Shown: positions 2,195-12,108 of the stretch, piece by piece
Layout of the letters: each line of letters begins with the position of its first letter
Numbering within the stretch: position 1 is the first letter of the stretch
Origin: a bacterium
Lineage (GTDB): Bacteria; Sysuimicrobiota; Sysuimicrobiia; Sysuimicrobiales; Kaftiobacteriaceae
Length of the DNA stretch: 19,585 bases
Assembly: GCA_044868695.1 (NCBI GenBank)
Contig: JBIOWP010000139.1
Span: 1 to 19,585 of the forward strand
Reading direction: 5' to 3'
Translations under genes and position numbers: made by a program
Notes under the pieces: generated by a model
The model's database searches: none
Seen by the model: the letters and a program-made list of their open reading frames with translations, nothing else
Told to the model about the DNA's origin: nothing

Positions 2195-2743
2195 TCACCA
2201 GGCCGCGCGATCGCCGATCCACTCGTACAAGTACACGCGGACCCGCTTGTAAACGTAGTAGGTGATTACCGAACTGATGGCTCCCTTCAGGAGATTGAAC
2301 GGCAGCAGGGCCGGCAGCACGAGCGCAATCACCTGCTGGCGCGGGATCCCAAAGAAGATGGGCGTGAGGAAGATGTTCGCGGCGATCATGACGCCTGTCA
2401 TCGCGAGGATCCCCAGACCGAGCGATCTGACCGCGCCCGCCTTCGTGTGATCGACCGTGTAGTAGACACCGGCCACGCCCACCAGCGTCGCGCCTGCCAG
2501 GAAGTTCATGAAGATCCCGAACGGTCCTCCGGCGGTGCCGGACCGCAGGATCTGGATCAGCAGAGCTTTGATCGCCTCGACTGCGACGCCGTAGGTCGGC
2601 CCCAGCGCGAATGTCGCGATCAGCGCCGGAACCTCGCTGGGATCGTACTTTAGGAATGCCGGAAACGGCGGAATGGGAAAGTCGAAGTACATGAACGCAA
2701 AGGCCACTGCCCCGAGGACTGCGACCTGCGTAAGCCGTCTCAC
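2195..2743 (-). CDS. ribU: ECF transporter S component, riboflavin-specific
   Basis: GTG 2743 after AGGAGGGG. MRRLTQVAVLGAVAFAFMYFDFPIPPFPAFLKYDPSEVPAL...PFNLLKG, hydrophobic multi-TM protein directly downstream of an FMN riboswitch. Confidence 0.9.
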   Translation of the reverse strand: MRRLTQVAVLGAVAFAFMYFDFPIPPFPAFLKYDPSEVPALIATFALGPTYGVAVEAIKALLIQILRSGTAGGPFGIFMNFLAGATLVGVAGVYYTVDHTKAGAVRSLGLGILAMTGVMIAANIFLTPIFFGIPRQQVIALVLPALLPFNLLKGAISSVITYYVYKRVRVYLYEWIGDRAAW

Positions 2744-2745
2744 CG

Positions 2746-2777
2746 CTGCCCCTCCTGATAACGACCTGAAGGGGCAG
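2746..2777 (-). promoter_or_regulatory. Hairpin sequestering the ribU Shine-Dalgarno
   Basis: In the mRNA CUGCCCCU pairs with AGGGGCAG, which contains most of the RBS just upstream of GTG 2743. Confidence 0.6.
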
Positions 2778-2780
2778 GAC

Positions 2781-2853
2781 ACAAAACGGCGGGATCAGGG
2801 AGTAGGGAGCAGGGATTAGTTACTGATCCCTAATCCCGGATCCCGTATCCCGC
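2781..2853 (-). terminator. Terminator-like hairpin built from 4+4 heptamer repeats in the riboswitch expression platform
   Basis: GGGATCA GGGAGTA GGGAGCA GGGATTA (2791-2818) versus TGATCCC TAATCCC GGATCCC GTATCCC (2824-2851), closed by GC/GC. On the minus strand it is followed by CGTTTTGT. Confidence 0.5.
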
Positions 2854-2866
2854 AGTTTCGCGGCTA

Positions 2867-3020
2867 ACCTTCTCCCATCCGGACTGTACCGTCGGCCCCG
2901 GCATCACACCGGATCCACCGCTACCGTAAGTACGGCTGCGGGTCGCGGGCTCCCCCGTTCACGTGAACGAAGTTACCGCCGGTCGGGAATTGGCGTATGC
3001 CTCACCCTGCCCCGAAGGTC
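2867..3020 (-). ncRNA. FMN riboswitch (RFN element)
   Basis: Minus strand reads CTTCGGGGCAGGGTGA...AATTCCCGACCGGCGGT...AGCCCGCGACCC...GGATCCGGTG...CCGGGGCCGACGGTACAGTCCGGATGGGAGAAGG, matching the RFN consensus; lies upstream of ribU. Confidence 0.96.
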
Positions 3021-3042
3021 GCGTATGTGGTTGTCAAGATTC

Positions 3043-3072
3043 ATGCTAGCATGGACACGGAGAAGGGGTCAA
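3043..3072 (-). promoter_or_regulatory. Putative sigma70 promoter for the riboswitch-ribU transcript
   Basis: Minus strand TTGACC (3072-3067), 18-nt spacer ending in TGC, then TAGCAT (3048-3043). The -10 lies in the palindrome CATGCTAGCATG (3042-3053). Confidence 0.45.
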
Positions 3073-3073
3073 C

Positions 3074-3478
3074 GTGAAACGCGTCGTGTTCGTCTGAGTC
3101 GGCAACAGCGCCCGCTCCCAGATGGCGGAAGGCCTCTTCAACGCGAGGGCGCCTGAAGGTTGGCGGGCGAGCTCCGCGGGAACGGAGCCGGCAAAGAGCC
3201 TTCGGCCCGAGGCGATCGCCGCCATGCGGGAGATCCAGATCGACATCTCCGGCCAGCGGCCCAAGGGGCTGGCGGACGTCCTGGGCCCTGACGTGGCGCT
3301 CGTTGTCGGGTTGTGCGCTGAAGAAGCCTGTCCGGTCGTGCCCGGCGCCCGCAGCGAACACTGGCCGCTTCCTGATCCCGCGGGCACGAAGGATCCTCAA
3401 TTCTACCGCCAGATCCGCACTGAACTCACCCGGCGCATTGACGACCTCATCGGGCGCCTGCCCAGCGCCGGCGCCTAG
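3074..3478 (+). CDS. arsC: Arsenate reductase (LMW-PTP fold, thioredoxin-coupled type) with in-frame TGA at the catalytic Cys; probable selenoprotein
   Basis: GTG 3074 after purine-rich GGAGAAGGGG. MKRVVFV-[TGA 3095-3097]-VGNSARSQMAEG...SAGTEP...GLCAEEACPVVPG...HWPLPDPAG. The TGA occupies the C of the CX5R P-loop. The track ORF 3122..3478 lacks the P-loop. Confidence 0.8.
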
Positions 3479-5566: not shown

Positions 5567-6679
5567 CTAGGGTCGGAGCGGCGCGCCGTTGGCGGTCACC
5601 ATTCGCAGCGTCTGCTCGACACGTGTGACCAGGCTGCGGGGCAGCGGCACATAGAGCAGCGCGGGCGCGTACTGCTGCCCCGTGTGCGTGGCCCACCAGA
5701 GAAAGTCGACAAGCGCCCTCCCCTTGAACTCGTCGGGCTGCTCGGCGGTGATCACGATCCACGTGAACCCCGCGATCGGGTACGCGTCCAGCCCCTCCGA
5801 GTTGGTGAAGAACAGCCGGTAGTCCTGCGGGATGGCGGAGAGGATAATTTCCATGGCCTTTGTCGTCGTCGTCAACGAGGGGATGACGTACCGCCCGGCT
5901 TTGTTGCGGACGTTCGCGATCGTCATCCGGCCGCTGACCGCGTACGCCAGCTCCACGTACCCCACGGAGTTCGGGGTCTTTTTCACCATCTCGATGACGC
6001 CCGCGCTGCCCACGGCGGCAATGTGCTCCGCGGGCCACCGGACCGCCAGGCCCTCGCCGACCTGCTGCTTCCACTCGGGGCTGACCTTGCTGAGGTAGTT
6101 GGTGAGGATGGCGGTGGTGCCGGACGCGTCGGCGCGCCGGACGACTTTGATGGGCGCCTCCGCCGGCAGGGTGAGCTGCGGATTCAGTTCGACAATCCGC
6201 GGGTCATCCCACTTGGTGATGGTGCCGAGCAGGACCGCCGCCAGGACCTCGGGGGTGAAGTTCAACCCGGTAGGAATCTTCCGTGGTTCACTCGGTCGAG
6301 GTTCACTCGGCGCTCCGGGGGTGGGCGGCGGCCGGTTCTCCTCGATGCGGTAAACGAAGGCAACCGCGCCTGCGACCATCGGCAGATGCAGCACGCCCCC
6401 CGCCTGAAACGCCTGGTCGTCGGTCAGCGGGCTGTCGGTGCCGGCGAAATCCACTGTCCGTTGGAGAAACTGCTCGATGCCGGCGCCTGACCCCACGGGG
6501 CGGTACAGGACCCGCGCGCCCTTCTCCGCCGCGTAGGCCTGCAACCACCGCGAGTACAGCGCAAACGGAAACGTCGCGCCCGCCCCCGACAGAACTGCCG
6601 GCTGCGCCTGGACCGCCGACGCCGCCAGCAGCGCCGCCGCGCCCACCGCCGCAGCCGCCGTCACCCACGTCCTGCCCAT
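5567..6679 (-). CDS. pstS: Phosphate ABC transporter substrate-binding protein
   Basis: Signal peptide; GAGATFP, GSGAG, VDFAGTD, RADASGTT, GYVELAYA, YPIAGFTW; AGGAGG RBS. Confidence 0.9.
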   Translation of the reverse strand: MGRTWVTAAAAVGAAALLAASAVQAQPAVLSGAGATFPFALYSRWLQAYAAEKGARVLYRPVGSGAGIEQFLQRTVDFAGTDSPLTDDQAFQAGGVLHLPMVAGAVAFVYRIEENRPPPTPGAPSEPRPSEPRKIPTGLNFTPEVLAAVLLGTITKWDDPRIVELNPQLTLPAEAPIKVVRRADASGTTAILTNYLSKVSPEWKQQVGEGLAVRWPAEHIAAVGSAGVIEMVKKTPNSVGYVELAYAVSGRMTIANVRNKAGRYVIPSLTTTTKAMEIILSAIPQDYRLFFTNSEGLDAYPIAGFTWIVITAEQPDEFKGRALVDFLWWATHTGQQYAPALLYVPLPRSLVTRVEQTLRMVTANGAPLRP

Positions 6680-10655: not shown

Positions 10656-11846
10656 GTGCACGTTCAAACGCTGGTCGGACTGCTGGTGATCTCCGGACTA
10701 GGTGTCCTGACGTTGGCTGGCAGCCGCGTTGATCCGGCGTTCGGGATATTCGCTGCGCTGGGCATCGGCATCGGGGCCACGCTCCAGCGCAGTCGCTTTT
10801 GCTTCAATTCCGCCTTCCGTGACTTGATCCAGTTTCGGTCGGGCCGGACGATGAAGGGCGTCATCGTCGGTATGGCCGTCGCGACCGCCGGGTTTGGGGT
10901 CCACATGCGCAACCTCCTGCCGAACGCGTCGCTCGGTCCGATCGCTCCAGAGGCGCACGCCGTCCCCCTCAGCATTGCACTCCTCGCCGGCGGGCTGCTC
11001 TTCGGGATGGGGATGGTGATTGCCGGCGGCTGCACATCGGGATCCCTGTACCGCATCGGCGAAGGTTACCTGGCGTCCTGGGTCAGCCTTGCCGGCATCC
11101 TCGCCGGCCTGGTCCTGGTCAGCCACCACTGGAACTGGTGGTGGCAGCACGTGATCCGCGGTGCGCCGGTGGTGTGGCTGCCGCGGTATCTCGGATATGG
11201 CGGAGCGGTGGCCACAACGCTCGTGGGCCTCGCGTTGGCGTATGGTCTGGTGTTGTGGATTGAATCCCTCGGCGGTGTCGGCGTGCAGGACTACGCGGCG
11301 CCTGCTGGCGCTCGAACGTTCCACGAGAAACTCCATGAGATTGTGGCCGGCGTCTTCGGCCGCGGGTGGCCTGCGCCGGTGGGCGGCGCCGCCCTTGGGT
11401 TCCTGAACGTGCTGTCCTACAATGCACATATGCCGTGGCGCGTCGTCGGCGAACTGTCCCGGTGGGGCAATGCCGCGGCGGCTGCGGTCGGCCTGGGGCC
11501 CGGCACGCTACAAGGGACCGAAGAGTTGTCTGCCTGCGTGGTGACGACCGGCGGCGGGGTGCTGACGCACGGCTTCCTGCTCAACGTCGGCCTCGTCGGT
11601 GGCTCACTCTCTGCCGCATTGCTGGCGCACGAGTTCAAGTGGCGCGTGGCGCGCCGCCCCATCCGCTACGTGCAGTCTCTGGGAGGCGGCGTGCTGATGG
11701 GGTACGGATCCGGGCTGGCGCTGGGCTGCACCGCGGGAGCATTGTTCTCCGCGGTACCGTCGCTGGCGGTCAACGGCTGGGTCTTTGCGGCGACGCTGGC
11801 CGCCGGTGCGTGGATCGGCGTGCGCGTGATTGAGAGAATACCGTGA
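10656..11846 (+). CDS. YeeE/YedE family sulfur/selenium-compound transporter
   Basis: Multi-TM protein; LQRSRFCFNSAFRD, FGMGMVIAGGCTSGSLYRIGEG, GGVLMGYGSGLALGCTAG (three conserved Cys motifs). Confidence 0.93.
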   Translation: MHVQTLVGLLVISGLGVLTLAGSRVDPAFGIFAALGIGIGATLQRSRFCFNSAFRDLIQFRSGRTMKGVIVGMAVATAGFGVHMRNLLPNASLGPIAPEAHAVPLSIALLAGGLLFGMGMVIAGGCTSGSLYRIGEGYLASWVSLAGILAGLVLVSHHWNWWWQHVIRGAPVVWLPRYLGYGGAVATTLVGLALAYGLVLWIESLGGVGVQDYAAPAGARTFHEKLHEIVAGVFGRGWPAPVGGAALGFLNVLSYNAHMPWRVVGELSRWGNAAAAAVGLGPGTLQGTEELSACVVTTGGGVLTHGFLLNVGLVGGSLSAALLAHEFKWRVARRPIRYVQSLGGGVLMGYGSGLALGCTAGALFSAVPSLAVNGWVFAATLAAGAWIGVRVIERIP

Positions 11847-11871
11847 AGACCGAGGATGAGGAGGCGGCTCC

Positions 11872-12108
11872 GTGCTCCTGGATGTCCGGGGCGAGACCTG
11901 CCCGTATCCGATGAAGAAAGCCATGGAGGCGATGGAACGCCTGCCGGAGGGTGAAGTCCTCGACGTGCTGGTGGACCATCCGCCGGCCATCGACACAATT
12001 CGCATGGCCGCCAACCGCTATGGCTTTCGCATGGACGTGGAACCGGCCGGCAGCGGAGAGTGGCGGATCCGTCTCCAGCGACGAACCGGAAAGGGCGTGA
12101 GGACGTGA
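11872..12108 (+). CDS. TusA/SirA/YedF family sulfur carrier
   Basis: AGGAGG RBS; LDVRGETCPYP, GEVLDVLVDHPPA, GEWRIRL. Confidence 0.93.
   Translation: MLLDVRGETCPYPMKKAMEAMERLPEGEVLDVLVDHPPAIDTIRMAANRYGFRMDVEPAGSGEWRIRLQRRTGKGVRT

Follow-up and report, generated by a model that had tools for sequence, protein, structure and literature searches.

Does a TGA codon at the catalytic cysteine of an arsenate reductase-like gene encode selenocysteine (Sec), and if so, how is it decoded and what does the enzyme do? These questions are raised by a small gene (Table 1) in a stretch of 19,585 nucleotides (the window) from an uncultured soil bacterium. The frame from GTG3074 to TAG3478 contains a single in-frame TGA, and read-through of this codon gives a product that starts MKRVVFV-U-VGNSARSQMAEG. 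Without read-through, the list of open reading frames offers only a 118-residue product from Met17. A first-pass annotation of the window had proposed a selenoprotein with Sec at the nucleophile position of the CX5R motif, behind a GTG start and a ribosome-binding site. All of these elements are present, there is no second in-frame stop, and the downstream cysteine pair (Cys81 and Cys86) is intact. The comparisons described here support this main claim, a Sec as catalytic nucleophile in the CX5R motif of an ArsC of the low-molecular-weight protein tyrosine phosphatase (LMW-PTP) fold, and suggest that the UGA at codon 8 is almost certainly decoded as Sec. The reading of the locus that we prefer, with a probability of roughly 0.6, is that this decoding occurs, likely by way of two RNA helices (P3 and P1), and that the product is a thioredoxin-recycled arsenate reductase using Sec8, Cys81 and Cys86.

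Table 1. Positions of features in the window and, in the last row, of other candidate Sec genes in the source genome (contig:position).
Feature	Position	Strand	Remarks
ECF S-component gene	2195-2782	-	divergent from the Sec gene
FMN riboswitch (RF00050, 95.6 bits)	2863-3023	-	ahead of the ECF S-component gene
Ribosome-binding site GGAGAAGGGG	3059..3068	+	purine-rich, 5 nt upstream of GTG
LMW-PTP-fold ArsC-like gene, predicted selenoprotein, 134 aa	3074..3478	+	GTG start, TAG stop; PF01451 E 1.8e-20
In-frame TGA, codon 8, predicted Sec	3095..3097	+	aligned to nucleophile Cys10 of S. aureus pI258 ArsC
P-loop U-x2-N-x2-R-S	3095..3118	+	N11, R14 and S15 invariant across 22 aligned orthologues
Helix P1, 5' arm	3110..3119	+	+13 to +22 after UGA
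Helix P1, 3' arm	3159..3168	+	+62 to +71; P1 encloses ~40 nt of variable structure
Hairpin P3, candidate displaced SECIS	3171..3188	+	6 bp (+74-79 with +86-91); loop CGGGAA 3177-3182 (+80 to +85)
Cys81-x4-Cys86 (CAEEAC)	3314..3331	+	aligned to resolving Cys82/Cys89 of pI258 ArsC
D101-P102, equivalent of Asp105	3374..3379	+	D 21, N 16, S 1, G 1 among 39 orthologues
Aldo-keto reductase (AKR), then cytochrome P450	3488-5550	+	AKR starts 9 nt after the stop of the Sec gene
Lone pstS	5567-6679	-	opposite strand to the Sec gene
Other in-frame TGA redox-motif genes of the source genome, including selD	C84:53135, C16:1719, C63:23908, C96:1054, C52:19372, C146:10011	-, +, +, +, -, +	

The only Pfam match of the read-through protein is PF01451 (LMWPc), with 74.1 bits against a cut-off of 23.2. 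The AlphaFold model, with Cys replacing Sec, has a pLDDT of 92.8. Its best Foldseek matches are the B. subtilis and pI258 ArsCs (TM 0.82-0.85, 36-41% identity), and the matches to PTPs or YwlE have lower identity (15-29%). Residues U8, R14, C81, C86 and D101 are aligned to C10, R16, C82, C89 and D105 of pI258 ArsC.

The protein shares with the thioredoxin-coupled ArsCs of this fold (pI258, 1LJL/1JF8; B. subtilis, 1JL3; T. thermophilus TtArsC; TIGR02691) the P-loop x-x2-N-x2-R-S, the two downstream cysteines, the DP position and roughly 40% sequence identity. There are differences, however. The nucleophile is predicted to be Sec, the resolving cysteines have a CX4C rather than a CX6C spacing, the Asp residue is often Asn, and the gene is located outside an ars operon, usually beside pst, phoU, pit or ppa genes. 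The nucleophile in x5R and the two resolving cysteines, the hallmarks of TIGR02691, are thus present with altered spacing, but the score for this model is 85.9 bits against a curated cut-off of 174.3. The protein can therefore be said to work like pI258 ArsC, without being a member of that equivalog. No model in NCBIfam 20.0 is above its cut-off for the protein. Neither PF03960 nor NF041106 is matched in Pfam or NCBIfam at E 0.001, and the motif is Ux5R, not UxxS or UxxC.

The LMW protein tyrosine and arginine phosphatases (Wzb, PtpA, YwlE) have the same fold and a CX5R-type P-loop. In these enzymes the Asp in the DP loop is the general acid. In contrast, the Sec clade keeps the resolving cysteine pair, Cys81-x4-Cys86 being present in all 39 distinct Sec genes, and does not keep the general acid throughout. 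The first-pass annotation was correct that the DP motif is intact in the window gene, but the Asp is shared by just 21 of the 39 orthologues; in the metagenome set described below it is found in 25 of 51, four of which could not be scored. An invariant cysteine pair together with a variable Asp101 favors a reductase over a phosphatase.

Close orthologues have TGA at codon 8 and distant ones have Cys, which settles the TGA-versus-TGC comparison suggested earlier. A homologue is present in 53 of the 61 genomes of the order. Among the best 30 loci, the codon is TGA in 23 of 23 with at least 58% identity and TGC or TGT in 7 of 7 with 42-50% identity; the agreement among the 23 exceeds what chance would give. 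GTDB species genomes, with loci that partly overlap the 61-genome set, contribute 57 loci (40 with TGA, 14 with Cys and 3 lacking the N-terminus), and in 94 genomes of the phylum TGA is found in 25 of 25 strong hits, spread over three families. The TGA loci are from Ca. Calidihabitans, Fervidifonticultor, Geohabitans, ANGP1 and 'Armatimonadota', equivalent to CSP1-3/Sysuimicrobiota. Viral contigs gave no match to the gene.

Exclusion of duplicate, short and N-containing genes leaves the 39 distinct Sec genes (58-75% identity), every one of them keeping the TGA, the seven residues upstream and the full frame. They form one clade (SH-aLRT 97) in a quick maximum-likelihood tree of 135 rows and 133 columns, which includes the best 70 of 150 library hits. 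The clade encloses one Cys protein, P0016, and its sister group in this tree (support 87) is the CX6C thioredoxin-type ArsC. Closest Cys relatives include ArsR-ArsC fusions. P0016 and two other full-length Cys proteins, P0152 and P0163 (60-71% identical, outside the tree), are likely Sec-to-Cys reversions, judging from their sequences. There is no in-clade Cys gene among the 61 relatives of the order or the 94 phylum genomes. One genome with 9% contamination (G017) carries the gene three times (on C111, C66 and C47), each copy with a TGA.

As had been predicted, gene callers shorten this protein. Among the best 120 of 193 database proteins, 112 start at or after Met17 and 5 at residue 9, so that 117 of the 120 are headless; the other three are two proteins with Cys and one whose start was mis-called. 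None of the 120 contains U. In annotation, this lineage, found in deep soils, groundwater and hot springs, has a headless ArsC only, so that its coupling of arsenic and selenium is misread.

The source genome (G000; 2.59 Mb, 95% complete) carries the full Sec machinery that the first-pass annotation had named as a check. The selA, selB and tRNA-Sec genes are clustered on contig C84, all above curated cut-offs. The tRNA-Sec has the anticodon UCA and scores 78.3 bits (cut-off 47), and it is the only UCA tRNA in the genome at the default threshold. The selD gene is also above its curated cut-off and has its own in-frame TGA. Of 1265 long ORFs, 602 end in TGA, more than in either of the other stop codons, so the genetic code is not 4/25. 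In the 61-genome set, selA is present in 22 and selD in 21 of the 23 TGA genomes, each of which has one or the other; with selA in 50 and selD in 53 of the 61 genomes, this is a matter of consistency rather than a test.

Besides selD, five other Sec candidates were found in the source genome by motif, which we take to be Prx (TxxU), Grx-like (UxxC), OsmC, AhpF-N-like and GrdB/UGSC-like (UxxC) proteins. Four of them have a clear hairpin near the UGA, Prx less so. The ab-initio scan for Sec genes missed the ArsC-like gene at its strict thresholds, and its list represents a partial selenoproteome.

Could the UGA be something other than a Sec codon, namely an inherited nonsense codon (in a pseudogene or in the gene of a headless Met17 protein), a sequencing error, or a codon for a Cys or Trp tRNA? 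Nonsense copies do exist in the family: 15 of 21 TGA hits from metagenomes that fall outside the clade stop within 70 codons, as expected for such copies, and two loci within the clade (L102 and L103) are degraded. There is also an in-frame ATG at codon 17, but the protein starting from it would be without the entire P-loop. A nonsense codon is hard to reconcile with 39 intact genes that maintain the TGA, the residues before it and the frame after it, and a Cys or Trp tRNA with a sole UCA tRNA that is the tRNA-Sec beside selA and selB. With respect to sequencing error, long near-identical contigs from four public DNA runs of two studies show no other letter in the codon, including its last position, which had been singled out for checking. 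No RNA run was listed as carrying the sequence. This sample consists of assembled contigs rather than raw reads; two runs that are possible sources of the assembly were excluded, and two of the four used share a study with them. A codon other than Sec is largely refuted by these observations, and we consider it very improbable.

A hairpin with a CCGC/GCGG core at 3110-3133 had been put forward, with reservation, as the SECIS. It is paired at 88% in the 39 genes, the same as in shuffles, and no pair is changed on both sides. On these grounds it was rejected as the SECIS. The sequence of its 5' arm is paired with 3159-3168, and hairpin P3, farther downstream, is the best SECIS candidate. No consensus structure is found in +1 to +45 after the UGA in the 39 genes. 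An Rfam search finds the FMN riboswitch only.

The synonymous sites reveal where the RNA is constrained. The codons of Ser34 (TCC), Ala35 (GCG) and Thr37 (ACG) are identical in all 39 Sec genes, and that of Arg14 (CGC) in 38, while no other codon of these types is invariant in the gene. In 20 Cys genes, on the other hand, the codons of Ser34, Ala35 and Thr37 vary freely. These three codons contribute to P3, with its loop CGGGNA. Pair 75:90 of this hairpin is maintained in 39 of 39 genes (CG 25, GC 10, AU 2, UG 1 and UA 1), and a change at position 90 alters the amino acid (E/D). Pair 15:69 of the long-range helix P1 is maintained in 38 of 39 (CG 31, GC 7, CC 1). The switch in this pair has four independent origins, with both sides changing on the same branches of a tree based on the downstream portion of the gene, outside the helices.

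Taken over the 39 genes, P1 and P3 are 93.8% paired, as compared to 33-47% for controls in slid registers. The covariation is 0.177 versus 0.054 for shuffled alignments (0 of 500), shuffle counts that are overstated because the sequences are related. In 7 of the 39 genes, two pairs of P1 are broken. For the window sequence alone, the MFE and centroid structures both correspond to P1 and P3, with no excess stability (z 0.37). RNAalifold gave P3 and a 3-bp helix only, with P1 absent; P1 was derived from averaged pair probabilities and covariation in the same data, and the held-out check came afterwards. An inner helix, P2, was rejected, its fixed register not being conserved.

In that check, four held-out TGA loci score 103-107 bits, compared to 50.5 bits or less for Cys loci, with a model that scores sequence and structure together. 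In metagenomes, a scan that selected on the UGA/P-loop pattern only gave 100 stretches, 72 of them distinct. By protein motif, 51 belong to the clade, 44 of these being non-identical to the training genes. P3 has all six pairs in 48 of the 51 and five in the other three, and P1 has five to seven of its seven pairs; one member has the P3 loop CCGGAA in place of CGGGNA. The 21 outsiders have at most four of six pairs in P3 and four of seven in P1. A SECIS-like RNA structure is therefore present 3' of the UGA, in which P1 and P3 covary and which is restricted to the Sec clade. Six single LMWP loci outside the clade (L171, L206, L216, L218, L228 and L229) have TGA at the nucleophile and at least 100 open codons after it, with no P1 or P3, and would be either nonsense mutants or independent Sec forms.

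The bSECIS model calls for a loop of 3-9 nt with a G in its first two positions, a stem of 4-16 bp, an MFE of -7.5 or lower, and an apical loop 16-37 nt from the UGA, and the same review describes some bacterial SECIS elements as lying outside the model (PMC13188914). P3 passes the loop, stem, G-position and MFE rules (6-bp stem, -9.3 kcal/mol). It fails the spacing rule, as its loop starts at +80, a linear spacing of 79 nt. Like the consensus element of the E. coli fdhF type, P3 is located in the coding region 3' of the UGA and has a 6-nt loop, a 6-bp stem, and, in the loop, a G at position 2 with another G after it. The differences are the distance from the UGA and the covarying long-range helix that precedes the hairpin. 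The selD genes of this lineage (31 genes) have an ordinary SECIS, with the loop at +33.

P3 is probably a displaced SECIS, and it is quite probable, from the pattern of conservation, that its loop is the site for SelB. The upper stem of the E. coli SECIS begins 11 nt from the UGA (PMC8659212), and P1 begins after 12 nt. P1 would thus start just beyond the ~11-12 nt under the ribosome, and pairing of +13-22 with +62-71 would loop out ~40 nt, so that the G-rich P3 loop is offered to SelB near the ribosome. The path from the UGA around P1 to P3 would be ~20 nt, inside the canonical 16-37. We infer that the element is displaced because the P-loop codons (NSARSQMAE) can hardly be changed to accommodate a SECIS at the normal position. 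If this is true, the spacing of a bacterial SECIS has to be counted along the folded RNA instead of the linear sequence, and selenoproteins of other families in which the active site is constrained may have escaped detection on the same account. Such an RNA element would break the 16-37 nt rule underlying SECIS-based searches, would explain Sec at sites with fixed downstream codons, and could be used to introduce Sec at constrained sites.

Sec is found in place of the catalytic Cys in other named arsenate reductases (TIGR00014/PF03960/COG1393 and NF041106). These presumably have the thioredoxin-like ArsC/Spx fold, in contrast to the protein here, with its PF01451 match and Ux5R motif. Two such 'arsenate reductases', TIGR00014 (UxxS) and NF041106 (UxxC), are listed among the 119 families in Table 1 of a 2026 review, which has no PF01451 entry and no Ux5R motif (PMC13188914). 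Earlier papers tie the known Sec-ArsCs to COG1393/PF03960/cd03032 (PMC1088965, PMC2398784). The main text of deep-Sep mentions arsenate, ArsC and phosphatase nowhere. In the printed sources consulted, the only Sec-bearing ArsC of the LMW-PTP fold is an engineered B. subtilis ArsC, U89, in which Sec was introduced at the resolving Cys89 via UAG as a mass-spectrometry reporter only (PMC4150793); this Sec is artificial and is not at the nucleophile. In the full-text literature searched, neither a natural Sec LMW-PTP or ArsC nor a distal bacterial SECIS was found. The odds are somewhat better than even that no natural selenoenzyme with the phosphatase (CX5R P-loop) fold was known before this one and that its decoding relies on a bacterial SECIS of a new architecture, with a long-range helix. 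The selenoproteome would gain a fold and the Ux5R motif, with a Sec nucleophile in the P-loop attacking an oxyanion. The family would also allow a direct test of Sec versus Cys in a well-studied mechanism, with the natural in-clade Cys revertants as controls.

Arsenate is likely the main substrate of the enzyme, as judged from the active site and the genome content. The arrangement of three redox residues fits the relay of the thioredoxin-coupled ArsC cycle, as described in two reports (PMC6193951, PMC8949286). By analogy with the pI258 and B. subtilis enzymes, the selenolate of Sec8 would attack arsenate bound by Arg14 and the P-loop. Arsenite would be freed by Cys81 through formation of a Sec8-Cys81 bond, Cys86 would resolve this bond to give a Cys81-Cys86 disulfide, and thioredoxin and thioredoxin reductase would reduce the disulfide. 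Arsenate may enter with phosphate through Pst or PiT, the genes of which are the usual neighbors of the Sec gene.

This neighborhood was surveyed at 36 Sec loci with 4-kb flanks, giving 97 gene clusters of which one representative each was scanned with Pfam. None of the 36 loci has arsR, arsB, acr3 or arsM within 4 kb (97 neighbor clusters), in agreement with the first-pass annotation, which had seen no arsR or arsenite exporter adjoining the window gene. In comparison, 27 of the 36 loci have a phosphate gene near the Sec gene (PhoU in 17, PstB in 13, PstA/C in 12, DUF47 in 9, PstS in 7 and PiT in 7). In 10, the Sec gene is followed immediately by a co-oriented pyrophosphatase gene, and several loci are a co-directional run pstSCAB-phoU-arsC-ppa. 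The Cys forms of one family (f4) are likewise near pstB.

The main rival to arsenate reduction is suggested by this organization: a selenoprotein with its principal task in phosphate control, where it would work alongside PhoU, Pst, PiT or the pyrophosphatase as a Sec-nucleophile phosphatase or a redox switch, arsenate reduction being a side activity. Measurable phosphatase activity of thioredoxin-type ArsCs (PMC8949286) is also consistent with it. The window gene itself, however, sits between the FMN riboswitch-ECF gene and the AKR, with pstS, 2 kb off, as the only phosphate gene. The active site is another difficulty, as Asn, Ser or Gly at position 101 in 18 of the 39 proteins is difficult to reconcile with a phosphatase, the resolving cysteine pair is invariant, and the fold is nearer to ArsC than to the PTPs and YwlE. 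Moreover, arsenate enters cells via phosphate transporters, and the same neighbors would double as its entry route. On balance, a primary role in phosphate control is possible and rather unlikely.

The substrate could also be another oxyanion, for example if the Sec enzyme prefers antimonate, an organoarsenical or a selenium oxyanion, or is involved in the handling of molybdate/tungstate. Genes for ModA/ModB-like proteins are found at 5 of the 36 loci and a MOT1 molybdate transporter gene is directly upstream at 3, and the CX4C spacing sets the clade apart. Molybdate neighbors are a minority, however, the P-loop matches that of ArsC, and we know of no LMW-PTP-fold reductase of antimonate, a selenium oxyanion, molybdate or the like. 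We regard a preference for another oxyanion as improbable.

The doubt expressed in the first-pass annotation about arsenate as the substrate was a fair one, but there is an arsR-arsN2-arsM cluster, without arsC, elsewhere in the source genome (contig C56), and no other ArsC was found there. Searches of the genome gave no LMWP gene besides the Sec gene and no ArsC of PF03960. The genome also has a MIP channel, two thioredoxins and two thioredoxin reductases. No acr3, SBF or arsB gene was found in this 95% complete assembly, and it is therefore proposed that arsenite would leave mainly by ArsM methylation or through the MIP channel. In the 23 TGA genomes, Acr3 is above the cut-off in just 3 and an arsM-like gene is present in 22; as arsM-like genes are found in 55 of the 61 genomes of the order, their co-occurrence with the Sec gene is weak evidence. 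In five relatives without the Sec gene (G001, G007, G023, G040 and G052), a Cys homologue adjoins arsM, and the Sec gene may fill the same role. Many relatives have two arsM-like paralogues, the second of which contains a single in-frame TGA (for example on G027:C32, G045:C1 and G012:C1). Sec-ArsM is a known family.

Several other neighbors of these genes were observed. The ECF gene next to the window gene also adjoins 12 of the 36 orthologue loci, and the AKR and the P450 adjoin the Sec gene in 4 and 3 other loci, respectively. At one of the 36 loci (L057:4409-5726, minus strand), an ArsP-family permease and a small thioredoxin are tail-to-tail with the Sec gene, the sole arsenic-linked neighbors in the survey. 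In the source genome, a heavy-metal cluster recognized by eye (C16:2879-10934), with a P-type ATPase, an ArsP-family permease, MerA-like and MerB-like proteins and an ArsR-family protein, is near the Grx-like Sec gene. Finally, the window encodes at 10656-12108 (plus strand) a membrane protein followed by another protein, also recognized by eye, which we take to be YeeE/YedE-like and TusA/SirA-like and which may be a sulfur or selenium uptake pair.
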